A stretch of 64,000 nt of DNA, taken from the NCBI GenBank assembly GCA_023475165.1, contig JAMCWA010000088.1, positions 130,298 through 194,297 of the forward strand, written 5' to 3'. Positions 3,884 to 19,528 of this stretch are shown here, one piece after another. The notes beneath the pieces were generated by a model that searched no databases, was not told where the DNA came from, and saw only the letters and a list, made by a program, of their open reading frames with translations. Source of the DNA: Bacillota bacterium (lineage in GTDB: Bacteria > Bacillota > Sulfobacillia > JAMCWA01). Each line of letters begins with the position of its first letter. Position 1 is the first letter of the stretch. A program made the position numbers and the translations under genes.

Positions 3884-3972
3884 TCGCCTCGACTGGTAGA
3901 CAAACTGATAGAAAAACCGGCTCACGCTCAGGTACCGCCGCGTTTTCAGTTGTTGTCCGCAGAAGAAACGGC

Positions 3973-4581
3973 TCATAGCTTTCCACGCCGGGCCTGATCC
4001 CTGACTTTCTCCAGTTCCCGAAAGATCAACCGTCGCCCCTCTTCCGTCTGCCACCAGTTGTTCCTGGTGACATCCTGCCGCCCATCGGGGACACAGAACG
4101 CCTCAACTCCAGGAAAATAGCGGAGAAAGGTCATTTTCGCCCGGCGCATGTGGAGTGGGGCTGAGATCAAAATCACCTTTTTCAAGTCCCGGTTCAGATT
4201 AGCCTGTTTGAGCACCTCTCGCCCGAAAACGACGTTTTCTTCGGTATTCGCAGACCTCGCCTCGGTGAGAAGGATGTCGGCCGGCAGTCCGCCGGCCCGG
4301 GCTGTTTCCTCCAGAACCACTGCCTCCGCCCTCCCGGTAGTCTTTGGGTCTCCCCCGGTGAAAAGGACGCGCGGCGCGTAACCGGCTTGAAAGAGTTCCA
4401 CCGCCTTCCAGGCCCTTTCCCGATGACGTCCCCCGAAAACAAAAATGAGGTCCGCCCGTTGTGGTTCGTCCTCAAGAAAAAGGAAATCGGTTACCTCGTT
4501 GATGGACATACCCTCATAGATTCGTTCCAAGGGAACCTCCCCCTTTGGCCTATGGATAAAAGAACCCTCATCCATCAACAC
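3973..4581 (-). CDS. DUF218/YdcF (ElyC/SanA) family protein
   Basis: 202 aa. 'LIFVFGG...[34 protein letters not shown]' matches the YdcF-like fold. Confidence 0.6.
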
Positions 4582-4730
4582 AATTCGACGAGATCAGATC
4601 TTTTTCCTGCTACCTCGGAAAGTTCGCCGTCGAAGCTCTTCCCTACAAAGCCCTGCAAGCGCCGCTGGCTGGGGGCGGCTCTTACGAGCTGCACCGCCGG
4701 CGTATCATCGCTTTTCACCAGGGGCTCGAC

Positions 4731-4757
4731 AAGAAAGGGGCCCCGCTCGGGGCCCCC
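4731..4757 (-). terminator. rho-independent terminator downstream of hppA
   Basis: Minus-strand GGGGCCCCG-agc-GGGGCCCC hairpin followed by TTTCTT. Confidence 0.6.
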
Positions 4758-4762
4758 GTCCT

Positions 4763-6808
4763 TCAGCGCACAAAGAGATGCGCCAGTACCAGGGTGATGG
4801 TACTAATGAGCTTGATCAGAACGTGCAAGGATGGCCCAGCGGTGTCCTTGAAAGGGTCCCCTACGGTATCGCCGACTACCCCGGCCTTGTGCGTATCAGA
4901 GCCCTTTCCCCCGTAGTTTCCTAGTTCGATGAATTTTTTGGCGTTGTCCCAGGCCCCACCGCCGTTATTGAGGAAGAGGGCCATCAAGACGCCGCCGATG
5001 GTACCGATCATCAGAAAGGCCGCCGCTGCTTCGGCTCCCAGAAGGAGTCCCACCAACACCGGGGTAAGCACGGCGATGGCGCCGGGCAGAACCATCTGTT
5101 TTAGGGCTCCTACCGTAACAATGTCCACGGCCTGCGCGTAATTCGGCTTGGCCTTCCCCTCCATGATCCCGGGGATCTCCTTAAACTGGCGGCGCACCTC
5201 CAGGATGACCACCTGGGCCGCTTTGCCCACCGCTCGGATGGCCGTGGAGGAGAAAAGGTAGACCATCATGGCCCCAATGAAGCCCCCCACAAAGACCTCC
5301 GGCTTACCGATGTCTACCGGGAAGTCACCCTTCCAATGGAGGGCCAGCTTCACCTCATCCAGGTAGGCAGAAAAGAGGAGGAAGGTGGCCAGGGCGGCGC
5401 TGCCGATGGCATAGCCTTTGGTCAAGGCCTTGGTGGTGTTGCCCGCCGCATCCAGGCGATCCGTTCGCAGCCGGATCTCCTTGGGGGCGCCAGACATCTC
5501 CACGATCCCGCCGGCGTTGTCCGTGATGGGGCCAAAGGTATCCATGGCCAGGATGTAGGCCGCCGTCGAGAGCATCCCCATGGTGGCTACAGCCGTACCG
5601 TACAGTCCGCCGCCCGCCAGTCCACTGTTCTGCCCCAACCAATGCGAAGCCAAGATGGCGGCAGAAATGATGATGGCGGGGATGGCGGTGCTCTCCATAC
5701 CAACGGCCACCCCGCTGATGATATTGGTGGCTGGTCCAGTCTGAGAAGCCGTGGCGATCTCTTTTACCGGGCGATAGCGATAGGAGGTGTAGTACTGGGT
5801 AACATAAACAAAGAGGAAGCTGGTAACAACCCCCACCATGGCCGCCAGGTAAAAATTCAGGAAGTTCACCCCAGGGGCGCTTAACATGTTTTGGGCCACA
5901 AAATAGAGGAAGATCGCGTTAAGTAGCGTGGTCACAAAATAGCCCATGTTCAGGGCCGTCATGGGGTCGCTTTCTTCCCGGGTACGAACGACAAAGATTC
6001 CCACCAGGGAAGCGATGATCCCAAAGGCCCGAGCCACCAGGGGGAAGAGAATACCCTTCACCCCAAAGACGGGCATCAAGGCGATTCCCAGGATCATCGC
6101 CCCGATGTTCTCTGCCGCCGTAGACTCAAAGAGGTCCGCCCCACGGCCAGCACAATCGCCGACGTTGTCCCCCACCAGGTCGGCCACCACGGCCGGGTTG
6201 CGAGGATCATCCTCCGGAATCCCGGCCTCCACTTTCCCCACCAGGTCGGCCCCAACATCGGCCGCCTTGGTGTAGATCCCGCCGCCTAACTGGGCGAAGA
6301 GGGCAACAAAGCTGGCCCCAAAGCCGAACCCAACGATCAAGAGAGGGGCCTTATCCGGCTGGGTGGCTCCCCCGAAGGCATAAAACAGGCCGGCTACTCC
6401 CAGAAGGCTCAAGGCCGTAACCGCCAGACCGGTGACGGCTCCCCCGCGAAAGGAGAGGGTCAGGGCGCGGTTCAGGGAGTGTCTGGCTCCAGCTGCCGCC
6501 CGTATATTGGAGTTGACCGACGTGTACATGCCTATGTATCCCGAAAGAGCCGACGCTAGGGCACCGGTCAGGAAGGCGATGGAGGTATGAAGGCCGTTGG
6601 CGGTAAAACCCAGGAGGGCGGCCACGATCACGGCCAAAAAGGCAATGGTTCGGTACTGGCGGAAGAGGAAAGCCATGGCCCCTTCCCTAATGGCATCAGC
6701 AATGACCTGCATTTCCTGAGAGCCCTTGTCATGACGAAAGACATCATAAATGAGAAAAACGGCGCCGAGTACGGCCAGGGCTCCCGCTATTGGGATAATG
6801 ATCTCCAA
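4763..6808 (-). CDS. hppA: membrane-bound proton/sodium-translocating pyrophosphatase
   Basis: 681 aa polytopic protein with conserved '[17 protein letters not shown]' and '[15 protein letters not shown]' motifs. Confidence 0.9.
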
Positions 6809-7034
6809 GAAAACTCAACCACCTTTCCCTTGTTCTTCAAGCTGAAGGGCGATTTCCTCACCGGTCGCCCTGTTCTGTCTGTTACTGGACTAACGTCCCC
6901 CCTCCTTCAATTGGTTATTCCCTAATTTTGTAGCTTTTACCACGAATAAAGTCTATACTGGACAGGCCGAAAAGTCAAGACCAGAGCCGGACCTCGTGCA
7001 CTCGTTCCCTCTTCACAACATAAACTGCCTTAGA

Positions 7035-7830: not shown

Positions 7831-10058
7831 CCCTCTTCCCCTCCGAAGAGCCGCTGGTATTCTCCCAGGGAAAGTCTTACCTCCCGCGGCTTGGAACCTT
7901 CGTAAGGGCCAACGAAGCCCCTTTCTTCCATAGCGTCCACCAGGCGGCCCGCCCGGGCGTAGCCTATCCTGAGGCGCCTTTGCAGAAGTGAGACGGAGGC
8001 CTGCCCTGACTCCACCACCACTCGCACCGCCTGCTGGAAAAGGTCATCATCCCCAGCGGTGTTCTCCCCCGTATCTTCTTCCTCCAGTTTCAAGACACTT
8101 TCCTCGAACTGAGGCTTCCCCTGGCGAGCCAGGTGCTCTACAATGGTCTCCACCTCGGCGTCAGAGATAAAGGCTCCCTGGGCCCGTACCGGTTTGGGGG
8201 AACCCATCAGGTGAATGAGCATGTCCCCCTTGCCCAGGAGTTTTTCCGCCCCGCCCATGTCCAGGATGGTCCGTGAATCGACCTGGGAGGAGACGGCAAA
8301 GGCTATCCGGGAGGGGATATTGGCCTTGATGGTGCCCGTAATGACGTCCACCGAAGGTCTTTGTGTGGCCACCACCAGGTGGATGCCGGCAGCCCGTCCC
8401 ATCTGGGCCAGGCGGGTGATTCCGTCCTCCACATCCACCGGGGCCACCATCATCAAGTCGGCCAGCTCGTCCATAACCACTACAATATAGGGCAGGAACC
8501 CGGCAGCCGCTCCATTTTGAATCTGCTGCTGGTTGTAGCGGGCAATGTCCCGCACCCCGCTGTCAGCAAAGAGCTCCCAGCGGCGGGCCATCTCCCCGAG
8601 CACCCAGCGCAGGGCTCCCGCCACTTTCTTGGGGTCAGTGACCACCGGAGCCAAGAGGTGGGGAATACGGTTGTACACGCTGAGTTCGACCACCTTGGGG
8701 TCGATGAGGAGGAATTTTACCTCCCGAGGTGAAGCCTTAAAGAGAATGCCGGCAATGAGGGAATTAACGCAAACGCTCTTGCCGGAGCCGGTGGCACCAG
8801 CAATGAGAAGGTGCAGGGTCTTCTCCAGGCTGGCCACAATGGGCCGCCCGGCGATATCCTTCCCCAGTGCTACCGTTAGAGGTGAGCTGGCGTTTTGGAA
8901 CTCGGGCGTTTCCAGGACCTCTCGTAGCCGGACCGTAGAAATTTCCTGATTGGGAACCTCAATACCTATGACCGACTTCCCGGGGATAGGGGCCTCGATT
9001 CGGACGCCTTGGGCAGCCAAACTTAACGCAATGTCGTCGGCCAGGCTCACCACTTTGCTGACCTTGATCCCGGGGGCAGGTTGAACCTCAAAACGAGTTA
9101 CGGTAGGTCCCCGGCTGACCTCTACCACCTTAGCGTTAACGCCGAAGGTCTCCATAGTGGCTTCCAAGAGCCGGGCCTTATCGGTGATCTCCCGGTCTCC
9201 CCGCGGGGCTTTCACCTTACCCCCGCGATCCAGCAAAGACAGCGGCGGCAGCTGAAAAAGGAAGCTGTCTCCCAGGGAAAGCTGCTGAAAGGGTGGTTTT
9301 TCCGGGACCCCCGCGCTGTCTCTTTTTTCTTCTCGGGGGGACTGAGGTTTACCGATCTCCGGCCGGATGACCTGAGTTCCTCCCGGAACAGGCTTGTCCT
9401 TGGTGAAAGACCGTAACCCCCTTCCCTGCTCCCCTCCCGGATCTCCTTCGGTAGTACCTGGGCGAGAAGGCAGTCTTTCTTCCTTCGCCGGGACGGCCCG
9501 TTTCCTGCGCATCTGACTCAGTTCCCGCACCTTCCGGAGCAAGGAACGCCCGAGCCCCCGCCCAAGGACCAATCCCTGCGAAGAGACGTGTTTCAGACTG
9601 AAGCCAGTCAACAGCAGAATCCCCACCAGGGCTAGAAACCCCATCACTACATAGTGCCCAGGGGAACCGAAACCGGCCCGCAAGGCCCAGGCCGTCACCG
9701 CCCCCAGGAGACCACCGCCAAAGCCACGCCAAGCGTTTTCAAACTCCAATCCCGGCGGCGTAGTCTGGTGAAGGTAGGCCGCGGCGGCGACAATCAGGAG
9801 GAGGGCCCCCACATACCGTGGTCCAAAGGTAAAACGTCGCCGGTAAAAAACCAAGGCCAAACCCAGCCATCCCAACCCCAGGGGGATTAGAGGGGCGATC
9901 TCCCCCAGAAGGATCCGTATCAGGCGGACAGTGAAATTTCCCAGAACCCCCGCCGTCCCGTTCAGGAGCCCCAAAAAGCCCAGGGTGGAAAGGGCTAGAA
10001 GGATGAGACCGAAAATCTCATATCTCAGGTCTTCTTTCAGCTGGCCAAAGAGCTTCAT
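7827..10058 (-). CDS. ftsK: DNA translocase FtsK/SpoIIIE
   Basis: N-terminal TM segments and a Pro-rich linker. Motor domain with Walker A 'GATGSGKS' and 'VVVMDELADLM'. C-terminal gamma winged helix. Likely start is Met 'MKLFGQ' at about 10058; the ORF extends to 10148. Confidence 0.9.
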   Translation of the reverse strand: MKLFGQLKEDLRYEIFGLILLALSTLGFLGLLNGTAGVLGNFTVRLIRILLGEIAPLIPLGLGWLGLALVFYRRRFTFGPRYVGALLLIVAAAAYLHQTTPPGLEFENAWRGFGGGLLGAVTAWALRAGFGSPGHYVVMGFLALVGILLLTGFSLKHVSSQGLVLGRGLGRSLLRKVRELSQMRRKRAVPAKEERLPSRPGTTEGDPGGEQGRGLRSFTKDKPVPGGTQVIRPEIGKPQSPREEKRDSAGVPEKPPFQQLSLGDSFLFQLPPLSLLDRGGKVKAPRGDREITDKARLLEATMETFGVNAKVVEVSRGPTVTRFEVQPAPGIKVSKVVSLADDIALSLAAQGVRIEAPIPGKSVIGIEVPNQEISTVRLREVLETPEFQNASSPLTVALGKDIAGRPIVASLEKTLHLLIAGATGSGKSVCVNSLIAGILFKASPREVKFLLIDPKVVELSVYNRIPHLLAPVVTDPKKVAGALRWVLGEMARRWELFADSGVRDIARYNQQQIQNGAAAGFLPYIVVVMDELADLMMVAPVDVEDGITRLAQMGRAAGIHLVVATQRPSVDVITGTIKANIPSRIAFAVSSQVDSRTILDMGGAEKLLGKGDMLIHLMGSPKPVRAQGAFISDAEVETIVEHLARQGKPQFEESVLKLEEEDTGENTAGDDDLFQQAVRVVVESGQASVSLLQRRLRIGYARAGRLVDAMEERGFVGPYEGSKPREVRLSLGEYQRLFGGEEG

Positions 10059-10200: not shown

Positions 10201-11037
10201 ATGCCAAAAGAGAAGGCCTTTGGCCCCGCGGAACCGGCGCCTGCTCCCGAACCCCAGGGCCCCGACTACTTACCGGGACCGGAGGTACCGGTGCCGCCGA
10301 CTCCGGTCGCCCCTCCCGACGAAAAACCTGTCCCGGAAAAGAAGACGTCTCGCCCCGGAAAGAAGCCGGAGGCGGCTGTCACCGGGAACATCAAGGAGAT
10401 GGGAACGCCCAGCGTGCCCCACCCCACCAGCAATATTCACATCCTGACCATCATCGGTCAAATTGAAGGGCACCTGGTCCTACCAGCTCAGAACAAGACG
10501 ACTCGTTATGAACACATTATACCGCAATTGGCGGCGATTGAGCAGAGTCCCGAGATCGAGGGAGTGCTGGTGGTCCTAAATACGGTGGGCGGCGATGTGG
10601 AGGCCGGTTTGGCCATCGCCGAGCTAGTTGCCAGCTTGACGAAGCCCTCCGTTTCCCTGGTCCTGGGGGGTGGTCACAGTATCGGGGTCCCTATCGCCGT
10701 CAGTACGGCCTATTCCTATATCGCCAATACGGCCACGATGACCATCCACCCCATCCGGCTCACGGGTATGGTCATCGGCGTCCCCCAAACCTATGAATAC
10801 CTGGACAAGATGCAGGACCGCGTGGTGAAGTTCGTCGTGAAAAATTCGGGGATTACCGAAGAAAAATACCGGGAGTTGATGTTTCGCACCGGGGAACTGG
10901 CCCGGGATATTGGAACGGTCTTGGTCGGCAAGGACGCCGTTCAGGTGGGGCTCATCGATGAAGTCGGGGGGCTAGGGTCGTCCCTGAAGAAGCTCAAGGA
11001 ACTGATTGCCGAGAGAAAAAGGCACAAGAGCAGCTGA
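10201..11037 (+). CDS. tepA: ClpP-like translocation-enhancing protein TepA (YmfB family)
   Basis: Clp-protease fold '[41 protein letters not shown]'. Pro-rich N-terminus; the true start may be the internal Met at about 10399. Confidence 0.7.
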
Positions 11038-11082
11038 GAACCACCGGACTAAAATCCAACAGTCTCCCGGGGGGTTGAGCGA

Positions 11083-11298
11083 GTGATCCTTTGGACCGTC
11101 ATGCCTATAGAACTGGTTCTGGAAAACGCCCAGACGGCTCCGGCTTTGCTGGAGGTCCAGCAAGAGGGTCGCCTGCTTCTGGTGGAACCTCAGCCAGGCG
11201 GCCAGGGCAAGCTGGTTCGCCTTATTAGTTCCGACCCAAGCGACTACCTGAATCCTTCCTGGCAACCAGGTACACTGGTGCAACTGGGAGTCCATTGA
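11083..11298 (+). CDS. YlzJ-like small protein
   Basis: 71 aa starting 'MILWTVMPIELV', immediately downstream of tepA as in Bacillus ymfB-ylzJ. Confidence 0.5.
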   Translation: MILWTVMPIELVLENAQTAPALLEVQQEGRLLLVEPQPGGQGKLVRLISSDPSDYLNPSWQPGTLVQLGVH

Positions 11299-11624
11299 AA
11301 ACGACCGTTACCCGCCTCTTAGTTGCCGCTTCTTGCCCCCGCGTATGTCAACTACGGCTACTACGTGGTGTAAGTCCCCACATTCTCGCGTCCAAACTCA
11401 TCCGCTCGGTCTTAGTTCCCTCCGGGAAAGCGCTGACAAACTGTGCCCACCTTTGAGGGTGGTCCTGCCTTTCTTGCTTCACCATCCGGCTGGCGACCGG
11501 CTGGCAAAAACCTTGCTCCGGCTGTCACCCGCCCTTTGCATCCAGCATAGATATATGTTAGAAGTTAAGGTGTTACGTAAACCTCCGCCTGGTCCCTACC
11601 TGAGGTAAAACGCCACGCAGACCT

Positions 11625-11638
11625 TTCCGGATTCCAGG
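11625..11638 (+). promoter_or_regulatory. perfect palindrome 'ttccaggcctggaa' in the gvpA leader/promoter region
   Basis: About 75 nt upstream of the gvpA ATG. A weak TTGCAT -35-like hexamer lies at 11536–11541. Confidence 0.3.
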
Positions 11639-11709
11639 CCTGGAAAGCACGGCCTACTCCAGGGGTTATCCCACTGGAATAGAGACTAGCAGGAAAGGGG
11701 TGAGTCTCA

Positions 11710-11910
11710 ATGAAGACAGCTCTCGGGACCACAAGTTTGGCTGATGTCCTGGATCGTATCCTCGACAAGGGCATCGTCATCGACGCCTGGGCCAAGGTGT
11801 CTCTGGTCGGGATAGAGATCCTGGCTGTGGAAGCCAGGGTGGTCGTCGCCTCGGTGGCCACGTGGATCGAGTACGCCGGGGCCGTAGGACTGCTGGAAAC
11901 CGTAACGTAA
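11710..11910 (+). CDS. gvpA: gas vesicle structural protein GvpA
   Basis: 66 aa. '[53 protein letters not shown]' is a near-canonical GvpA core. RBS GGAAAGGGG. Confidence 0.95.
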
Positions 11911-11955
11911 CTTCTCAATGGAACCGGTATTCTTTCGCCGGATTCCTGGCGCGTT

Positions 11956-12020
11956 CTGCTTGAAATCGCGGAGGCATATGCCTTTAGTTCTTCCCCATCG
12001 GGGCATGTGCCTCCGCAATC
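11956..12020 (+). terminator. hairpin/partial terminator (attenuator) between gvpA and gvpN
   Basis: 'gcggaggcatatgcc...gggcatgtgcctccgc' is a long imperfect stem followed by the pyrimidine/T-rich tract 'aatcttctcttcc'. Confidence 0.5.
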
Positions 12021-12078
12021 TTCTCTTCCCTATCCGGGAACTGAGGTCACCTCAAGAACCCATAATTGGAGTGGGACC

Positions 12079-12993
12079 ATGATCGTCAGTAATTCCGTCA
12101 GGATACTGGAACTTGAAGCATTAACGGACGTCGTCGTCACCCCGTCCGTTCGCGAGGTAGCCGAGAGGGCTCTGGCCTACCTGCGCTGCGGTTTTCCCGT
12201 GAACTTCAGCGGCCCCGCCGGCACCGGCAAGACCACCATGGCCCTTTTGGTCGCCCGCGAACTGGGACGTCCCGTCGTCCTGCTCAACGGAAATGAAAGG
12301 ATGTATAGCACCAGCCTTATCGGTGGCCCCTACGGTTACCGCCACAAAAAAGTGGTCGATAACTACATTCGAACCGTCAGTAAAGTTGAGGAAGAAGTTG
12401 TGGAGGAATGGGTCGATAGCTGGTTGTCGGTGGCCTGCCGAAATGGTTATACCCTGCTCTATGATGAGTTTACCAGGTCCCGCCCCGAGGCTAATAACGC
12501 CCTCCTTTCGGTTCTGGAAGAGAGAATCCTCATCCTACCTGTGCCGCGGGGTGAGGAGGGTTCGATAAACGTACATCCCAACTTTGCCGCTATCTTTACC
12601 AGCAACCCTGAGGAGTACGCCGGCGTCTTTCAAGCCCAAGACGCTTTGCTGGATAGAATGGCCACCATCAAGCTGGACTATTATGATCAGGATACTGAGG
12701 CCAGTATCGTCAGATCCAAGACCGGGCTGGAGTCCGACGACGCCGAAAAGATTGTTTGCCTCGTCCGCTTTCTCCGGCAGAAAAAGGAGATCAAGCCAAA
12801 GCCAAGCTTACGGGCCGCTCTGATGATAGGCCGGATGCTGAAAGTGGATGGCGGTCACGCGGAACCAGAGAATCGCTTTTTCCTGGAGACTTGCCTGGAC
12901 GTTCTCGCAGCCGCCGGCACTTCCCGGGAGAAAATGGCCACTCTAATCAGGCTTTGGTTCAAGGGGGTAACTGGCCGGCATCCAGACGAATAG
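12079..12993 (+). CDS. gvpN: gas vesicle AAA+ ATPase GvpN
   Basis: Walker A 'GPAGTGKTTMA' of the CbbQ/NirQ/GvpN family. Start chosen at ATG 12079 ('MIVSNS') with RBS GGAGTGGG. Confidence 0.9.
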   Translation: MIVSNSVRILELEALTDVVVTPSVREVAERALAYLRCGFPVNFSGPAGTGKTTMALLVARELGRPVVLLNGNERMYSTSLIGGPYGYRHKKVVDNYIRTVSKVEEEVVEEWVDSWLSVACRNGYTLLYDEFTRSRPEANNALLSVLEERILILPVPRGEEGSINVHPNFAAIFTSNPEEYAGVFQAQDALLDRMATIKLDYYDQDTEASIVRSKTGLESDDAEKIVCLVRFLRQKKEIKPKPSLRAALMIGRMLKVDGGHAEPENRFFLETCLDVLAAAGTSREKMATLIRLWFKGVTGRHPDE

Positions 12994-13059
12994 CATAGGG
13001 ATGAGAGATGTTCCATGACGCCCTGGGCGGCTGGCGCAAGGAATGAAAAAGCCGCGGTG

Positions 13060-13175
13060 TGGCGACGGGTGGGCGATTGCCGGCCAAGCGATTTCACCTA
13101 GCCGAGCCCGCCACGATGCGGTCGGCGTAGATGACCCAAAGCGAGGACGGCAATCGCCTGTGCGTCGCCCATTGG
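13060..13175. repeat. degenerate inverted-repeat element related to the C-module of the dispersed repeat
   Basis: 'gggcgattgccggc…gcgaggacggcaatcgcctgtgcgtcgccc'. A second copy lies at 62200–62255 in the same orientation relative to its downstream gene. Confidence 0.5.
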
Positions 13176-13183
13176 CAAAGAAG

Positions 13184-13945
13184 GTGTTTGAATTGTCGAC
13201 TTTCATCTACCTCTACGGAGTAATCGACTCCGGACTGCCCCAGTCCCTGGGTTCGGTGAAATTGGGCTCCCTTCCCCGCGAGGTCCGCACCCTGCCCCTG
13301 GAGGAAATAGCAGCTCTGGTCAGTGAGACGGATGAGCAGAACTTTCTCCCCACCCCGGACGATGTCTTGACCCACGAGAAGGTCCTGGAAACGGCCATGG
13401 CCGAGCACACAGTATTACCGATCCGGTTTGGAACTGTGGCCGGCAGTCTTGAGGACGTCCAGGTCTTCCTCAAGGAAAACTACCGGGAGCTTGCAGCCAA
13501 CCTAAGCCAGCTGCGGGGCAAGGTGGAGGTGGGGGTGAAGGCCTTCTGGCACAAGGAAGCGGTTCGTCAGGAGGTGGAACGGGAAGTCGGTCAATTGGCC
13601 CGGCTCAAACAGGAACTGCGGCAAGCTCCCGGTCGGCAGCAAGAGATAGGCCTCGCCGTGGGCCAGGCGACCGAGGCTGTCATCGAGCGCTGGAAGGAAA
13701 CCCATGTCCAGTCTTTTCTGGCTACCCTCCAGGAATATTCTCTGAAAACGAAGATTAATCCGCCCATTAGCATCCACATGCTCCTGAATGCCTCCTTCCT
13801 GGTGGAGCGAGATCAGGAGCCTGGTTTTCGCTGTCGCGTTTTGGAACTGAGCCAGGTCTATACAAAGAAGTTTGGCATAAAGTACGCCGGACCCCTTCCC
13901 CCTTACAACTTTGTTGACGTCAGGCCGGTCCTGCCACAGAGGTGA
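13184..13945 (+). CDS. gvpF: gas vesicle protein GvpF/GvpL family
   Basis: 'YLYGVIDS...VSETDEQNF...HEKVLETAMAEHTVLPIRFGT' is the GvpL_GvpF signature. GTG start at 13184 with AAGAAGG RBS; the upstream part of the listed ORF is repeat-derived. Confidence 0.85.
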   Translation: MFELSTFIYLYGVIDSGLPQSLGSVKLGSLPREVRTLPLEEIAALVSETDEQNFLPTPDDVLTHEKVLETAMAEHTVLPIRFGTVAGSLEDVQVFLKENYRELAANLSQLRGKVEVGVKAFWHKEAVRQEVEREVGQLARLKQELRQAPGRQQEIGLAVGQATEAVIERWKETHVQSFLATLQEYSLKTKINPPISIHMLLNASFLVERDQEPGFRCRVLELSQVYTKKFGIKYAGPLPPYNFVDVRPVLPQR

Positions 13946-14235
13946 CTGGGATGCCGGAAATGAAGCTCTCTTCCCTCGATCTACTCTTCCTTCCGTTAGC
14001 CCTGCCTGCCAAGGGTCTTTGGTTTATCTTGGAGCAGATCACCGACCTGGTCGATAAAGAACTCTACGACGAAGGTACCCTGCGACGAAAACTCCTCGAT
14101 CTGCAGGTTCTTTATGAGCTGGGGGAAATACAAGACGAAGAGTATCGCCAGTCCTGGAAGGACATTACAGCGCGACTGCAGTTCCTGCGCCAACAACAGC
14201 TGAGCGATGAAAACGAAGGAAGGCAGGGGGTCTGA
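13942..14235 (+). CDS. gvpG: gas vesicle protein GvpG
   Basis: 97 aa. 'LVDKELYDEGTLRRKLLDLQVLYELGEIQDEEYRQ' matches GvpG. Start overlaps the gvpF stop (ATGA). Confidence 0.8.
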   Translation: MTGMPEMKLSSLDLLFLPLALPAKGLWFILEQITDLVDKELYDEGTLRRKLLDLQVLYELGEIQDEEYRQSWKDITARLQFLRQQQLSDENEGRQGV

Positions 14236-14240
14236 TTGAC

Positions 14241-14669
14241 GTGGCCTTGCAGGCAACCAAGGGCAGCAGCGGAACCTTGGTCGATGTCATCGACCGGCTC
14301 CTGGATAAGGGTCTGGTGATCAATGCCGACATCCTGGTCTCATTGGCGGGGGTGGAGCTCTTGGGGATCAAGATCCGGGCAGCTCTGGCCTCCCTGGATA
14401 CCGCCGCCAGGTACGGTCTTGAGTTTCCCTCCGGCACCAATTATAACACCCAGGCCTGGCGAGCCCTTGATACGGGAAGAGAAAGCTGCCCTCAATGCGG
14501 AAAAACGGCGACAACCGCGGAACTCCTGGAAGAGGGCTGTCCGTGGTGCGGTTGGAAGAGTGCCAAAGCCCGCCTGAAAGAAGCCCAGATGGCCCTTCCT
14601 GAGGTTGAGAAGGTTAACGTAAACCCACCGGAGGAACTGTATAACCCGGACGGACCGGCGGTCGGCTAG
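14241..14669 (+). CDS. gvpJ: GvpA-family paralogue (GvpJ-like) with C-terminal CxxC…CxxC zinc ribbon
   Basis: 'LVDVIDRLLDKGLVINADILVSLAGVELLGIKIRAALASLDTAARYG' is a GvpA fold, followed by 'CPQCGK…CPWCGW'. Confidence 0.85.
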   Translation: MALQATKGSSGTLVDVIDRLLDKGLVINADILVSLAGVELLGIKIRAALASLDTAARYGLEFPSGTNYNTQAWRALDTGRESCPQCGKTATTAELLEEGCPWCGWKSAKARLKEAQMALPEVEKVNVNPPEELYNPDGPAVG

Positions 14670-14800
14670 AAGACCGCTGAAAAACACCCATCTGCGGTGT
14701 GGCGCAATCGCCAGGAGAAGTTCTCCGAAAATGTGGCGTAACTATAGGCGATTGTGTCGCTCCGGCGGCTTGGTGCTCAGCCCATTTCGGGAATTTGGAG
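14666..14800. mobile_element. truncated MITE-like repeat (TIR plus C-module) inserted between gvpJ and gvpK
   Basis: 'ctagaagaccgctgaaaaacacccatctgcggtgtggcgcaatc…gattgtgtcgctccggcggc' matches 30224–30330. Its CTAG contains the gvpJ TAG stop. Confidence 0.7.
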
Positions 14801-14816
14801 CCAGGATGCTCTACCC

Positions 14817-15119
14817 ATGACCATACAAATCAACGAGAACAACCTGAAGGATGGCCTTTTGGCCCTGGTTCTGGCCCTGGTAGAAATCATAGGCGACGTC
14901 CTTCAACATCAGGCCTTCCGCCGGATGGAGGGTGGCCGTTTGACGGAGGATGAGGTCGAGAGACTGGGTCAAGCCCTCCTGGACTTGGAGGAAGCCTTAG
15001 AGAAGATTAAGCGGGAACAGGGGATCTTTGAGGCGGTCCGGGCCGTACGCCATGGTTTGGATGACGTGGTGGACGACTTCCTCGATCGGGTCATGAATCC
15101 CGCGCGTTGGAGGGATTAA
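14817..15119 (+). CDS. gvpK: gas vesicle protein GvpK
   Basis: 'NLKDGLLALVLALVEIIGDVLQHQAFRRMEGGRLTEDEVERLGQAL' matches GvpK. Start is ATG 14817 after a GGAG RBS; the 21 N-terminal codons of the listed ORF lie inside the repeat. Confidence 0.85.
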   Translation: MTIQINENNLKDGLLALVLALVEIIGDVLQHQAFRRMEGGRLTEDEVERLGQALLDLEEALEKIKREQGIFEAVRAVRHGLDDVVDDFLDRVMNPARWRD

Positions 15120-15123
15120 GGCG

Positions 15124-16518
15124 ATGGGTGAATCCCCGGATTTCCGCCTGGCCTATCTATACACCATCCTGGCCCTTTCCGCCGCCGGCAAGGAAGTCAA
15201 CCGGGAAAACCTTTTGGAGCTTCTGCCTTTGCTGGGGCTTCCCGTTGAGGAAGCCTATTTGGAAGCCCTCCTCCGACTGACCCAGATGCTGGCGCCGGCT
15301 TCTAAGAAAACAGGGGAGCCATCCTCTCTCGGCAGTCCAGTCCTGGCCGAGGGACCTGACGCATCCTGCAGCCCAGCCTCCAGCTCAGAGGGATTCCGGT
15401 TGGGGCGTCCTGACAAGACCAGGACCGAGCCCCCTGCCGATAAGCCTCCCCCAGGAAGCTGGCCTCAAGTAAAGCCGGCCGGGCCGGGATGCTGGCCCAG
15501 GACAGAACCCGCCCCGAGAGGGCATCCTGGGGGAACCAGGCCGGAACCCACAACTGAGAACCCCTTTGCGGCGAGGCCAGAAGGTACTCCGGCTGAGCGC
15601 CCCACCGAGACCAGTCCGGAAGCGTCCGTGACCGGGCCTGCCAGCCAAGCCACCCCGGAACTCTCGGCTGACCATCACCTTCCGACCCGGCCGGGGCTCG
15701 AGCACGCCGAGTTTCCCGGTGAGGCTGAGGCTCAGGCCAAATCCGACTCCCAGCTTTCCGGTCGCTATCTCTATGGGATAGTCCTGACCGATGCTTCCAG
15801 GAGCCTGGGCTACATAGGTCTGGACAAGGGCCTGGTTTATGTCATCTGCGACGGTGGGGTGGGCGCCATTGTCCAGGCCTGTTCCCCAAGACCCTATGTT
15901 TCAGAAGACGAAGAGGTGGTCAAGAAGTGGATCAGTACCCACCACGAGATCCTGGAGTCGGTCATCCAGATATTCGGTACCGTCCTCCCAGTCGGCTTCA
16001 ACACCATCTTCCAGAGCGGCGCCGGCGACCCCGATCAGGTCGTGATCCAATGGCTCTCCGAGAACCGTTCTGACCTCCTGGGCAAGATCGAAAGGGTCCG
16101 GGGAAAATGGGAGTATGGAGTACAGGTGTTCCTCAGTCCCGGCGAAATCGGCGAGAGTCTCCTGGCCAACGACCCCGACCTCAGGAGAACAAAAGAAGAA
16201 GCGAGAACAAAGTCCCCCGGTCTGGCCTATATGTATACCCATAAGTTGGAGAGGACCCTCAAGGAGCGCATCGCGCAGATCTCTGAGCTATACTTTCAGG
16301 AGTTCTACCAGACCATCAAGGTCCATTGCGAAGAGGTACGCGTTGAGAAGACCCGGCCTTGGCCGGACGGTCGACAGATGATCCTGAACCTCTCCTGCCT
16401 AGTCCGAGAGAGCCAGGTCCAACAGTTGGGCGAGGACCTCGAATCCCTCCACCGGCGTACCGGGGTTTCTGTCCGATTCACCGGTCCCTGGCCACCCTAC
16501 AGCTTTGTAAGCCAATAG
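15124..16518 (+). CDS. gvpL: GvpL/GvpF-family protein with N-terminal aL12/P-stalk-like domain and long disordered linker
   Basis: C-terminal 'YLYGIVLTDA...VSEDEEVVKKWISTHHEILESV…LPVGFNT' is a GvpL_GvpF domain. Residues 1–60 read 'FRLAYLYTILALSAAGKEVNRENLLELL…VEEAYLEALLRL'. Residues about 60–200 are P/E/T/S/A-rich. Confidence 0.8.
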   Translation: MGESPDFRLAYLYTILALSAAGKEVNRENLLELLPLLGLPVEEAYLEALLRLTQMLAPASKKTGEPSSLGSPVLAEGPDASCSPASSSEGFRLGRPDKTRTEPPADKPPPGSWPQVKPAGPGCWPRTEPAPRGHPGGTRPEPTTENPFAARPEGTPAERPTETSPEASVTGPASQATPELSADHHLPTRPGLEHAEFPGEAEAQAKSDSQLSGRYLYGIVLTDASRSLGYIGLDKGLVYVICDGGVGAIVQACSPRPYVSEDEEVVKKWISTHHEILESVIQIFGTVLPVGFNTIFQSGAGDPDQVVIQWLSENRSDLLGKIERVRGKWEYGVQVFLSPGEIGESLLANDPDLRRTKEEARTKSPGLAYMYTHKLERTLKERIAQISELYFQEFYQTIKVHCEEVRVEKTRPWPDGRQMILNLSCLVRESQVQQLGEDLESLHRRTGVSVRFTGPWPPYSFVSQ

Positions 16519-16600
16519 GGTGCTGGAAAAGCACCCGCGGCAGTGCGACTACATTTCACGGGAGCCTTTTCCAAAAATCCTGGCAGATGAGGGCTGTCCC

Positions 16601-16912
16601 ATGAAGCCTACGGGTACTGCGCAAGCTACCTTAACCGACCTGCTGGACCGAGCCTTCGACAAGGGGCTGGTCTTAACCGCCGATGTCATCATCAGCGTCT
16701 CCGGGATTCCCTTACTCGGTCTCAACATACGGGCCATTTTGGCCGGTATGGAGACCTTGCTGGAGTACGGAATCATGGCCGACTGGGATAAAGCCCAGAG
16801 GAAGGCCTTTAGGAAAACACCGCAGAGGAACCCGCTGATCTTTTCTGAAAAAGGGCCGTGGCCGATTACTGGAGGGTCAAACCTATGCTCCACGAATCTC
16901 TGCCCCGATTAA
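16601..16912 (+). CDS. gvpS: GvpA-family paralogue (GvpS/GvpM-like)
   Basis: 'ATLTDLLDRAFDKGLVLTADVIISVSGIPLLGLNIRAILAGMETLLEYG'. ATG 16601 with a GAGGG RBS. Confidence 0.8.
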   Translation: MKPTGTAQATLTDLLDRAFDKGLVLTADVIISVSGIPLLGLNIRAILAGMETLLEYGIMADWDKAQRKAFRKTPQRNPLIFSEKGPWPITGGSNLCSTNLCPD

Positions 16913-17298
16913 GGGGGTTCCGCCAGTTGAAAAGTGGCCTGGATCTGACTCGCAGGCGAGAACCCAAAACCAGGCACTCCCTTACCCGCTTAGAGGAAAA
17001 CACCCCGGTGAGGGTAAACCGGCTCTCCCTGGCCAGGAGAATGCGAAGGGCAAGAGACTTTTTTGCCCGCCTACAGGCAAGCGTCACTGGCTTTCAAGAG
17101 AGAATGCTGCGGCAACGGGAAAAGCTCAAGGCGTTAAAAGAAGAAAACCGCCGGCTGGCACAATACCGACTGCGCGGCCAGCGGGAGGAGCAGAACGGGT
17201 CAAAAAACGCCCGGGAAAAGCCTGGACCGGCCCTTTCCGGCGCAGCGCTAAATCAACCCCAGGGAGGAGCAACAAGAAGATGGATTTGGATAAAGTGA
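16885..17298 (+). CDS. hypothetical basic, Arg-rich coiled-coil protein in gvp locus
   Basis: It fills the 370 nt gap between gvpS and gvpO. GGAGGG RBS before ATG 16885. 'RMLRQREKLKALKEENRRLAQYRLRGQREEQ' is a predicted coiled coil. No recognisable family. Confidence 0.4.
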   Translation: MLHESLPRLRGFRQLKSGLDLTRRREPKTRHSLTRLEENTPVRVNRLSLARRMRRARDFFARLQASVTGFQERMLRQREKLKALKEENRRLAQYRLRGQREEQNGSKNAREKPGPALSGAALNQPQGGATRRWIWIK

Positions 17299-17549
17299 TC
17301 CAGCGAGGCGTCTCCACCGTCAAGGAGCTCACCGGCTTGAAACCTTCCACGGTTACGGGAATCAGTCTGGAAGCAGGCAAATGGCTTCTCAGCTTGGAAA
17401 TGGTGGAGATGTCTTCCATTCCCAATGCCATGGACATCCTGGGTCTCTATGACGTCCAACTGGACGAAAACGGGTCACTGCTCTCTTTCCAACGTAGAGG
17501 CCTCCGCCGCCGTGGTGATACCCCAGAGGGTAAACTGGATACAGATTGA
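17280..17549 (+). CDS. gvpO: gas vesicle protein GvpO
   Basis: 'SIPNAMDILGLYDVQLDENGSLLSFQRRGLRRRGD' matches the GvpO C-terminal motif 'DIIGRYEITLD..G.V..YE...RYRRGD'. Confidence 0.75.
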   Translation: MDLDKVIQRGVSTVKELTGLKPSTVTGISLEAGKWLLSLEMVEMSSIPNAMDILGLYDVQLDENGSLLSFQRRGLRRRGDTPEGKLDTD

Positions 17550-17610
17550 GTGTAGACCGGCCGCGGTCGAGTAAAGGGCCGGGCCCGCCTTTCCCTACAA
17601 GGCGGCCGGG

Positions 17611-18606
17611 TCAGGACCGCCTGGGGGCCACGGGAGCTGAGGCCGGGAGCAATCCCTTGGCCGGAGAAAACCTGGTGCTGAGGTATACCCCTGCCAGCAC
17701 CAGGGTTACGCCCAACAGGTGATAAAGATGGATCGGCTCTGCAAACAACACCGCTGAGAGAAACATGGCCGATACGGGGACCAGGTTGACAAAGATGGCC
17801 GAAGTACTCGCTCCGACCCGATCAATCCCCCGGTACCAGAGGTAAAAGGCCAGCACGGTGACAAAGACCACCAGGAACAGCAGCGCCGCCCACCCATAAA
17901 CATCCAGATTCCCCAAGGCCAGCCGTTCGCCCTTTCCGACGAGGAAAAGGCCCAGGAAGGCGGCCCCACTGAGGCAGGCATAGGTGGTGGTGGCCAGAGG
18001 GGAGTAACGCCGCATGGCTACCTTTCCGCCCAGCGAGAAAGCGGCCCAGGAGAGCGGCGCTCCCAGCAGGATGAGATGGGTCGGGCTAAAACCGGACTGC
18101 CACAGACTACCAAAGGAACCGGCCGATGATATGGTCAGGACCCCCAGAAAGGCCAGTATCACCCCCAGGCCCTGCCAGAAAGAAATGGCCTCCTTCAGGA
18201 GAAGCGCTGAGAAAAGGGTGATGACGATGGGGTTAGAGGCAATGATAACGGCACTTTCTCCGGCCGGGTTGTATTTCAGGCCGTAAAAAAAGGAGAGGTT
18301 GTACAGGAACACACCTGTTAAGCCCAGGAACAGCAGGAGGGGCAGATCTTGCCAGCGCGGCAGTGTCCGTCTTCCTTCCTGGGACCAAAGGAGAGGGACC
18401 AGAAGCAATGAGCTGAAAAGAAACCTGGCCGTAGCCGCCGCTAGAGGGGAAAGCTCCTGAACCAAAAACTTGCCCGCCACAAAGGATCCCCCCCAGATAA
18501 GACCGACCAGGGTCAAGGAGATATAGGTCAAGGTAACATAAGGCCTTGTTGCCAAAAGTTCCCAACCCCCCAGAACATACCTGCCCAGGCTGCCATCAAA
18601 GCCCAT
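17611..18606 (-). CDS. DMT superfamily (EamA-type) transporter
   Basis: 331 aa with 10 predicted TM helices and duplicated EamA halves. Confidence 0.8.
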   Translation of the reverse strand: MGFDGSLGRYVLGGWELLATRPYVTLTYISLTLVGLIWGGSFVAGKFLVQELSPLAAATARFLFSSLLLVPLLWSQEGRRTLPRWQDLPLLLFLGLTGVFLYNLSFFYGLKYNPAGESAVIIASNPIVITLFSALLLKEAISFWQGLGVILAFLGVLTISSAGSFGSLWQSGFSPTHLILLGAPLSWAAFSLGGKVAMRRYSPLATTTYACLSGAAFLGLFLVGKGERLALGNLDVYGWAALLFLVVFVTVLAFYLWYRGIDRVGASTSAIFVNLVPVSAMFLSAVLFAEPIHLYHLLGVTLVLAGVYLSTRFSPAKGLLPASAPVAPRRS

Positions 18607-18739
18607 TTCCTGGCCGAGCCGGTGCCCGCCTCCGCCAGGCGCTCCGTCCCCTGCTGCTCCATCGGCAACGCCCGAGCACCCTCAAGGCCGGGGGGAGTTC
18701 ACGACCAGGCTCCCTGGCTGCCACTCCGCGCGTCATTTC

Positions 18740-19528
18740 CTAAAGGTCTTTCGCCGCCACAACCTCATCCCAGACCGATTGCGCCTCAGAAAAGAGAACC
18801 CTCCCCGCTGGCTCGTCCACCACCACTGTCAAATCTGGGTGTAGCTGCAAAACCGAAGCCGGTACCTGGCTACCCACCGGGCCTTGCAGGGCACGGGCCA
18901 GGATAGCCGCCTTATCGGCCCCACTGGCCAACAAGAGGATGCGCCGCGACAACATGATGGTCCTGATCCCCATGGAAATGGCATAACGCGGGACCTCGGT
19001 CTCCGAATCAAAGTCCGCCCGGCTGGCGGCAACGGACTCCGGATGAAGCTGAATCTTCTGGGTCAAAGAGCCCAGGGCGGTGCCTGGTTCATTGAAACCA
19101 ATGTGACCGTTCCGGCCAATCCCCAGTACCTGGAGGTCAATTCCTCCCGCGGCAAAAATGGCCCTCTCGTAGCGTTCCGCTTCCCTCGCCGGGTCCAGGG
19201 CCGCGCCGTTGGGAAGATGGGTCCTTTCTCGCCGGATATTTACCTGACTGAAAAGATGCTTATCCATGAAGGAACGGAAGCTTCGCGGGTGAGTCGGTGC
19301 AAGGGGATAATATTCATCCAGGTTGAAAGTGGTCACCCGGGAGAAATCCACCTCCCCTCGCTGGTAGGCCTCCACCAGCAGACGGTAAAGCCCCAGGGGC
19401 GTCTTTCCGGTGGCCAACCCCAGGACCAAATCCGCTTTATCTTTAATACCCTCAACAATGCTTTGAGCCGCCACCCGGCTCATCTCCTCATAGTCACGGC
19501 AACGAAGGATTTTCATAACACTGGACAC
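18740..19528 (-). CDS. nagB: glucosamine-6-phosphate deaminase
   Basis: 'GLATGKTPLGLYRLLVEAYQRGEVDFSRVTTFNLDEYYPL' is the NagB signature. Confidence 0.85.
   Translation of the reverse strand: MSSVMKILRCRDYEEMSRVAAQSIVEGIKDKADLVLGLATGKTPLGLYRLLVEAYQRGEVDFSRVTTFNLDEYYPLAPTHPRSFRSFMDKHLFSQVNIRRERTHLPNGAALDPAREAERYERAIFAAGGIDLQVLGIGRNGHIGFNEPGTALGSLTQKIQLHPESVAASRADFDSETEVPRYAISMGIRTIMLSRRILLLASGADKAAILARALQGPVGSQVPASVLQLHPDLTVVVDEPAGRVLFSEAQSVWDEVVAAKDL

Follow-up and report, generated by a model that had tools for sequence, protein, structure and literature searches.

Does the run of gas-vesicle (gvp) genes on Bacillota contig JAMCWA010000088.1 encode a complete organelle, and how did it come to stand among the sporulation genes of its host? 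The DNA analyzed is a stretch of 64,000 nucleotides (nt), hereafter the window, meaning that whole stretch, and all coordinates refer to it unless another locus is named. A preliminary description had proposed a ten-gene locus here, in the order gvpA-N-F-G-J-K-L-S-X-O, in the DNA of an endospore-former. We find it likely that these genes make up an intact and self-contained gas-vesicle operon of an uncultured, deep-branching, endospore-forming lineage of the Bacillota, with the mechanism and the origin proposed below.

Ten plus-strand open reading frames (ORFs), gvpA-N-F-G-J-K-L-S-orfX-O, occupy 11710–17549 (5.84 kb) without frameshifts or internal stops. Nine of the ten passed curated Pfam or NCBIfam cut-offs—the exception being orfX—and these profile searches uphold the gene identities and gene order first proposed. 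The Gas_vesicle, GvpL_GvpF, GvpG, GvpK and GvpO families, whose Pfam models had been suggested as a check, were all assigned. Specifically, the cluster holds a GvpA-family shell protein, two GvpF/GvpL proteins, GvpG, GvpK and the AAA+ protein GvpN, together with extra GvpA-fold paralogues (of the J and M/S types) that carry PF00741 in 14241–14669 and 16601–16912. GvpA aligns over 59 residues with the solved shell structures of Anabaena GvpA (8GBS) and Bacillus megaterium GvpB (7R1C) at E ~1e-22, and the GvpN translation retains both Walker A (GPAGTGKT) and Walker B (LLYDEF). The features of the locus are as follows (aa, amino acids; pI, isoelectric point; RBS, ribosome-binding site).

11299–11709, plus strand: non-coding leader, the presumed promoter region, belonging to the segment absent from the related locus L087
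11710–11910, plus strand: gvpA, major shell protein, 66 aa, pI 4.5; PF00741 4e-16; NF006874 107 bits (cut-off 100)
11965–12019, plus strand: gvpA–gvpN hairpin with a 17-bp perfect stem (inverted repeat I11)
12079–12993, plus strand: gvpN, AAA+ ATPase, 304 aa; TIGR02640 equivalog 320 bits (cut-off 266.8)
13193–13945, plus strand: gvpF, 250 aa, TTG start; PF06386 5e-61, model positions 2–245 of 245
13951–14235, plus strand: gvpG, 94 aa; PF05120 1e-16, 61 bits (cut-off 30.6), model positions 1–66 of 67
14241–14669, plus strand: gvpJ-type GvpA paralogue, 142 aa; PF00741 1e-15; best NCBIfam match haloarchaeal GvpJ, 5e-26, under that lineage-specific cut-off
14817–15119, plus strand: gvpK, 100 aa; PF05121 6e-19, 68.5 bits (cut-off 25)
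15124–15294, plus strand: gvpL N-terminal domain, aa 1–57, P1 (aL12)-like
15295–15759, plus strand: gvpL linker, ~155 aa, Pro/Ala/Ser/Glu-rich, a presumed disordered tether
15760–16518, plus strand: gvpL C-terminal GvpF/L domain, aa 213–464 plus stop; PF06386 1e-59, model positions 1–244 of 245; NF045778 GvpL 6e-51
16601–16912, plus strand: gvpS/M-type GvpA paralogue, short form, 103 aa; PF00741 2e-13; best NCBIfam match haloarchaeal GvpM, 5e-23, likewise under its lineage-specific cut-off
16885–17298, plus strand: orfX, 137 aa, pI 11.9, no family
17280–17549, plus strand: gvpO, 89 aa; PF05800 4e-16; RBS GGGAGGAG
17563–17620, no strand assigned: GC-rich stem-loop between convergent gvpO and eamA, a possible terminator

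Gene starts were set by gene calls on near-identical contigs and by RBS inspection. For gvpN (12079), gvpF (13193, TTG), gvpK (14817) and gvpS (16601), the longest-ORF starts given earlier had to yield to these later ones; gvpG was placed at 13951, and orfX most likely begins with the ATG at 16885. Neighboring genes are separated by 4–5 nt or overlap, apart from larger spacers between gvpA and gvpN (168 nt), gvpN and gvpF (199 nt) and gvpJ and gvpK (147 nt), and this tight or overlapping spacing, with RBSs at the start codons (GGAAAGGGG for gvpA), makes the block operon-like. Its co-directional run was borne out, but not its beginning at gvpA: the plus-strand block opens at tepA (10201). As described, gvpO is the 3′-terminal gene, an extra ORF sits between gvpS and gvpO, and neither Pfam nor NCBIfam gave a GvpC match among the cluster ORFs. 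GvpC, an outer reinforcing protein, occurs in cyanobacterial, haloarchaeal and Serratia clusters but not in all; its absence is not disqualifying, because B. megaterium likewise lacks it. No gvp paralogues beyond the cluster were found elsewhere in the 64-kb window.

Vesicle production and its alternatives

Would these genes suffice to make a vesicle? The B. megaterium cluster is gvpAPQ-BRNFGLSKJTU, of which B, N, F, G, L, S, K and J form the essential set (PMC11223475), and in haloarchaea A, F, G, J, K, L, M and O are essential, while enlargement also requires N (PMC9501494). The gene content of the window cluster is the union of these two minimal sets, from which we infer that it would suffice to build vesicles and that its host presumably makes them. 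GvpA, as in characterized systems, would polymerize into the ribbed shell; GvpJ and GvpS, both of the GvpA fold, would act with GvpF, G, K, L and O as the machinery of nucleation and assembly; and the AAA+ protein GvpN would drive vesicle enlargement. Transcription of the whole block would start from the leader upstream of gvpA, and the hairpin after gvpA would favor an excess of gvpA transcript.

Strain variation is consistent with function. NCBI holds the exact proteins (MCL4424469.1, MCL5040127.1 and neighbors) from Firmicutes/Bacillota metagenome-assembled genomes (MAGs), already named as gas-vesicle proteins. Contig JAMCQG010000076.1 (GCA_023379645.1) matches the window at 99.9% identity, and the same DNA is present in four read-set assemblies, one of which, the 97.5% identical variant L004, served for strain comparison; two MAGs at NCBI and several independent assemblies contain the cluster. 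The searchable literature gave no paper naming the MAG or run accessions. Against L004, gvpA shows three synonymous and no non-synonymous changes, gvpN eight and two, and gvpF one and two (an L004 indel sits upstream of 13193), and three spacers are ~5–6.5% divergent, indels included. Mostly synonymous changes in gvpA and gvpN beside divergent spacers form the pattern of functional genes, and both genes show purifying selection.

The leader, with 25 differences from L004 over 411 nt, diverges more between the strains than any other segment and has no family matches. Its sole AT-rich patch conserved between strains, at ~11546–11570 (GCATAGATATATGTTAGAAGTTAAG), contains a CATA-type motif; inspection of the leader by eye for promoter motifs of sporulation sigma factors was unconvincing. 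An Rfam scan of 10900–18800 returned no riboswitch or leader, and one long non-coding RNA match at chance level. The gvpA–gvpN intergenic region folds with z = -3.75 (0 of 200 shuffles fold equally well), and the arms of the hairpin at 11965–12019 are identical in L004 although the flanks vary. Since no U-tract follows 3′ of it, the role of this hairpin is uncertain; it may serve as attenuator or as 3′ stabilizer of the gvpA transcript, raising the gvpA:gvpN ratio. A second hairpin, long and imperfect, lies in the gvpN–gvpF spacer at 13061–13169 (z = -2.6). The stem-loop at 17563–17620 reaches -32 kcal/mol but, with z of -0.7, folds no better than shuffles. A small terminator-like hairpin at 11936–11951 was dropped, having two non-compensatory changes in L004.

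When might vesicles be made? One refinement, which we regard as somewhat unlikely, ties them to sporulation: they would be produced in the mother cell, from an operon read by a sporulation sigma factor, and stay attached to the spore for dispersal, instead of giving vegetative buoyancy. Gas vesicles of endospore-formers are well documented and have been on record since 1977: sporulating Desulfosporosinus cupriresistens contains them, and the paper that describes this names Desulfofarcimen acetoxidans (1977), Desulfallas sapomandens and Desulforudis as further cases, in which vesicles go with spores and may help dispersal (PMC12739157). The window cluster lies amid spoIIIE/ftsK, tepA, ylzJ and dpaAB, and its CATA-type motif falls in the one conserved AT-rich patch of a leader where scanning for sigma-70 promoters upstream of gvpA gave none; a sporulation-specific promoter there is possible. 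However, the match to the motif is weak, and the location amid sporulation genes is explained by a chance insertion site, because the closest relative found (L087, below) has the same genes without gvp. Among 80 GvpL-containing genome loci annotated by phmmer, that of the isolate Desulfosporosinus sp. SRJS8 (L017) shares the GvpL, GvpJ and GvpS variant family of the window, its GvpS being of the long form. By this sharing, the subtype is plausibly the one behind the vesicles reported in those spore-formers. Judging from Desulfosporosinus, Desulfofarcimen and Desulforudis, the host of the window may make its vesicles in sporulating cells, where they would aid flotation or dispersal.

Less probable again, and in our judgment unlikely, is a cluster that is intact but cryptic or silent, i.e., one with a non-buoyancy role (stress, cell-volume control) or too weak for visible vesicles, as reported for some soil bacteria. 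A number of observations speak for such a state or weigh against the production of vesicles. Intact gvp clusters without visible vesicles are known from Streptomyces, and the gvp cluster of Anabaena PCC 7120 is reportedly “intact but partially degenerated.” In the window, no sigma-70 promoter was recognized upstream of gvpA, gvpC is missing, and GvpF is ~33% identical to any homologue in species-representative loci. GvpS is truncated, without the GRAM/bPH and zinc-ribbon module of most close relatives, and the cluster lacks the Hsp20 and CDC48-type AAA genes of the most similar cluster (the MAG locus L007). Non-buoyancy roles have also been discussed (PMC12739157). On the other side stand the purifying selection on gvpA and gvpN, the full length of all domains, and a gene content that equals both experimental minimal sets combined (PMC11223475; PMC9501494).

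With vesicle production as the preferred reading, the locus adds one spore-forming Bacillota lineage to the known gas-vesicle encoders, though as a cluster of an ordinary kind that was already machine-annotated. At 5.8 kb and ten genes, with both minimal sets represented, it is a reasonable candidate for the engineering of acoustic reporters or nanoparticles.

The ylzJ–eamA site and the origin of the cluster

The upstream neighbor of the cluster is YlzJ (PF14035) and the downstream neighbor a minus-strand EamA/DMT transporter (PF00892), so that both the flanks and the Bacillus-like synteny noted earlier hold. The window also encodes dpaA, the flavoprotein dpaB, the ClpP-like tepA, ftsK/spoIIIE, rnj, dapA and aspartokinase. 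With dpaA/dpaB, ylzJ, tepA and spoIIIE/ftsK present in Bacillus-like synteny, an endospore-forming host, as originally claimed, is well supported; that it is also anaerobic is plausible, as suggested by its relatives alone. The PNPase of the window has one relative at 86% and otherwise ≤70% identity to anything, the nearest named taxa at 65–69% being Thermosinus, Heliomicrobium, Caldinitratiruptor, Symbiobacteriaceae and Thermoanaerobacteraceae; identities this low mark the lineage as deep-branching within the Bacillota. On the 99.9% identical contig (GCA_023379645.1; L001), ftsK (3283–5552) and a tepA-like gene (5665–6526) are each split into two calls, probably by assembly errors, and both are intact in the window.

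Is the cluster an ancestral part of this neighborhood? Its composition had suggested that it is native and not a recent island. The GC content across the cluster is 0.555–0.62, the same as in the flanks, as had been stated; at third codon positions it is 0.60–0.75 in the gvp genes vs. 0.60–0.72 in their neighbors, and the tetranucleotide profile of the cluster correlates with the remainder of the window at 0.937, where other segments of the same length give 0.949 ± 0.010. No flanking direct repeats, nearby tRNA or integrase were found around the cluster, the missing integrase again agreeing with the first account. The claim of a native cluster therefore holds in the sense that the composition carries no signal of a recent island, but it fails in the ancestral sense, because the corresponding site of the closest relative found is empty.

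That relative, L087, was recovered by a metagenome scan with TepA (74% identical in amino acids; 65–82% in nucleotides) and is collinear with window 382–26759 (~26 kb), on both sides of the cluster. It carries ykuD, ftsK (minus strand), tepA (plus), ylzJ (plus), eamA (minus), nagB (minus), two CN-hydrolases (minus), rnj (minus) and dapA (minus)—the gene order of the window, except that ylzJ abuts eamA without any gvp genes. L087 10942–11131 corresponds to window 11084–11273, and L087 11222–12085 to window 17663–18526. At the empty site ylzJ and eamA are convergent (~10923–11180 and 11083–12120), with stop-to-stop frames that overlap by ~90 nt at their 3′ ends. No gvp genes occur at tepA–ylzJ in ~55 other Bacillota loci, and the usual Bacillota order, seen in ~50 other loci, is dapA-rnj-tepA-ylzJ-ftsK. 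Relative to this order tepA–ylzJ (window 10201–11298) is inverted, which was also noted in L087, L125, L128 and L154; being common to the window and L087, the inversion would be older than the gvp insertion.

The Gvp proteins are 33–72% identical to their best homologues in the species-representative loci fetched, and these best matches are scattered among Dehalococcoidia, Hakubella, Nitrospirota, Desulfobacterota, archaea and a few Bacillota. The empty site of L087, taken with homologues of low identity that belong in many cases to other phyla, points to a lineage-specific insertion. Most parsimoniously, ~6.3 kb (the leader and ten genes, roughly 11299–17610) would have entered between convergent ylzJ and eamA in an old event, and the composition would since have equilibrated with that of the host. 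With two taxa compared, loss in the L087 lineage is a possible alternative. That the cluster is instead a recently acquired mobile genomic island is very improbable, even though the closest relative is without it at exactly the same site and the nearest homologues belong to other phyla: GC content, third-position GC and tetranucleotide signature lie inside the window range, no integrase, tRNA or flanking repeat accompanies it, identity to any homologue in the loci fetched is only 33–72%, and strains differing by 2.5% carry it. Read as an old, ameliorated insertion, the site and its empty counterpart in L087 cleanly illustrate how the operon for an entire organelle can enter a genome as a single unit of 6.3 kb.

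GvpL, OrfX and the variant GvpA paralogues

For the way in which accessory Gvp proteins nucleate the shell, this cluster and its relatives provide several testable handles: a P1-like GvpL, the OrfX family, a zinc-ribbon GvpJ, and GvpS either GRAM/PH-bearing or truncated. GvpL (464 aa) consists of a 57-aa N-terminal domain, the ~155-aa linker and the GvpF/L domain. The N-terminal domain alone matches archaeal P1 weakly (TIGR03685, E = 6.6e-4); a profile built from 11 of these domains aligns with 3A1Y_A (Pyrococcus P1 in the P0–P1 stalk complex) at positions 1–44 with E = 1.1e-16, and 5 of the 11 members weakly match PF00428. The AlphaFold2 model of the domain (predicted local distance difference test score, pLDDT, 85) has three helices. 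Its best Foldseek match in the PDB is again 3a1y_A (root-mean-square deviation 0.9 Å over 44 columns, 41% identity), and the top four PDB matches are all P1/P2 N-terminal domains, with yeast and human P1/P2 in places 2–4.

GvpL thus has the N-terminal helical dimerization domain of the P1/P2 family. At full length it scores 20 bits against a TIGR03685 cut-off of 100 and lacks the C-terminal factor-binding tail, ending in the GvpF/L domain (..GPWPPYSFVSQ) with the invariant GPWPPYSF C-terminus kept; this sub-cut-off score and this ending make it a domain relative and not a ribosomal protein. Compared with archaeal P1 (aL12, 3A1Y), GvpL shares the N-terminal sequence and three-helix fold, followed by an Ala/Pro/Glu-rich flexible hinge, but where P1 has its conserved factor-binding tail GvpL has a 250-aa GvpF/L domain. 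Its host, moreover, is bacterial, and bacteria use L7/L12 and L10, not P1 and P0. The linker (P30 A19 S17 E16 G15 in 156 residues) is unaligned and length-variable among homologues.

By motif search, the N-terminal domain occurs in 79 of the 120 best GvpL homologues, some of which are labeled “ribosomal protein L12E/RPP1/RPP2” by Joint Genome Institute (JGI) pipelines; among the bacterial GvpL proteins of anaerobe MAGs it is widespread. The genome loci with a P1-like GvpL are L007, L009, L019, L017 and L057 (a Clostridiales MAG) only, and the domain is not in the archaeal, haloarchaeal or actinomycete loci examined. No paper in the searchable full-text literature connects GvpL with L12E, P1 or the ribosomal stalk. 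Other GvpL homologues (P0059, P0074, P0087, P0089, P0092, P0109, P0110) have a second, unrelated class of N-terminal extension, with the consensus ..VRQEIQDILAENEASIKEIVKTSLLPELKAAVRDS...

orfX has its own RBS (GGAGGG, 9 nt upstream) and shares 28 nt with gvpS and 19 nt with gvpO; the MAG gene caller skipped it, and the identical 137-aa protein was called in other assemblies. A word-indexed protein search with OrfX returned OrfX alone, and an exhaustive search of 1.84 billion representatives gave 13 full-length homologues of 105–154 aa. No relatives were found in Pfam, NCBIfam or the PDB, and the feature is absent from the searchable literature. Homologues are encoded directly upstream of gvpN inside the gvp clusters of L007 (2235–2636) and L019 (2493–3038). 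Its own RBS and these separately encoded homologues indicate that orfX is a genuine accessory gene of the subtype; for the same reasons, a frameshifted remnant of the C-terminus of a long GvpS was ruled out. An OrfX profile match (28 residues, E ~5e-4) to a Haladaptatus ORF between gvpH and gvpJ (L067 3751–4578; L069 8372–9247), an acidic coiled coil, was judged compositional.

The AlphaFold2 model of OrfX is a single long helix over residues 46–109 (pLDDT ~98). The pI of the Gvp proteins is 4.5–6.0, and 7.8 for GvpS, against 11.9 for OrfX; haloarchaeal GvpI has a mass of 15.8 kDa and a pI of 10.8 (PMC9501494). From its charge, size and helicity, we hypothesize that OrfX is a GvpC- or GvpI-like modulator whose acidic binding partner would be the shell or other Gvp proteins. 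The P1 domain of 3A1Y, for its part, dimerizes and docks on P0 helices, and by this likeness GvpL would act as a dimeric hub on flexible tethers. We entertain, with somewhat more doubt than belief, the combined proposal that a captured P1 domain and hinge make GvpL a dimeric, flexibly tethered nucleation hub, maybe docking a helical partner, and that OrfX replaces GvpC/GvpI in coating and sizing the acidic shell. If true, stalk-like nucleation by GvpL would extend over a large gvp subtype comprising this Bacillota lineage, Desulfosporosinus and Dehalococcoidia.

The two GvpA paralogues vary at their C-termini. GvpJ ends in a zinc ribbon, C83-x2-C86...C100-x2-C103 (nt 14487–14549; CPQCG-x13-CPWCGW), and GvpJ-type ORFs of 30 related loci, from several phyla, retain this CPxC..GCPWCGW tail. 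The GvpS orthologues of L007, L008, L017, L034 and L035 are 245–370 aa long and carry one or two GRAM/bPH domains and a terminal zinc ribbon, an arrangement not previously described among GvpA paralogues. The long GvpS of L007 (11249–12340) and L017 (11548–12654) gives Pfam matches to GRAM, bPH_3 and Vps36 GLUE.

Comparison with known gas-vesicle clusters

Among characterized systems, B. megaterium offers a close parallel, being likewise an endospore-forming member of the Bacillota with a similarly compact cluster, no gvpC, and the eight core families A/B, N, F, G, L, S, K and J; GvpA of the window matches its GvpB (7R1C) at E ~2e-22 over 59 residues. The gene orders differ, N-F-G-J-K-L-S in the window vs. 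N-F-G-L-S-K-J in B. megaterium, so that the cluster is not of the B. megaterium type. The window has GvpO, which is not shared with B. megaterium (PMC11223475), and orfX in addition, and Pfam and NCBIfam assigned no window ORF to gvpR/T/U or gvpP/Q. The P1-like GvpL and the zinc-ribbon GvpJ also stand beside the B. megaterium set, as read on the window side only.

The haloarchaeal p-vac and c-vac clusters (gvpACNO + gvpFGHIJKLM + gvpDE) have all eight essential families and N in common with the window. Unlike them, the window cluster is a single co-directional operon without C, H, I, D and E, and gvpO, which follows N within haloarchaeal gvpACNO, is its last gene. The haloarchaeal loci examined have neither a P1-like GvpL domain nor the short zinc-ribbon tail of GvpJ. 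Actinomycete clusters such as Streptomyces gvpO-A-F-G-(Y)-J-L-S-K also combine gvpO and A, F, G, J, L, S and K with the absence of gvpC (PMC9501494; L061–L086). In these O comes first and in the window last, which supports the contrast with actinomycetes drawn in the preliminary description; gvpN is usually absent there and present here, and the order of K, L and S differs.

The greatest likeness is to clusters without a characterized member. L007 (a MAG) and L019 (Dehalococcoidia) share the gene order of the window, A-(X)-N-F-G-J-K-L-S-O, and likewise end in gvpO. The group formed by L007, L019, L009 and L017 shares the P1-like GvpL and the zinc-ribbon GvpJ, and the orfX family recurs in L007 and L019, though beside gvpN and not, as in the window, between gvpS and gvpO. 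The GvpL of L007 is the best match to that of the window (47%). The clusters of L007 and L019 are larger; that of L007 has two Hsp20 genes (GvpH-like; 4153–4650 and 9170–9652), a CDC48-type double AAA ATPase (4737–6917), a long GvpS, a second GvpJ and further zinc-ribbon proteins. By gene content and order, the window cluster reads as a pared-down version of the L007/L019-type clusters.

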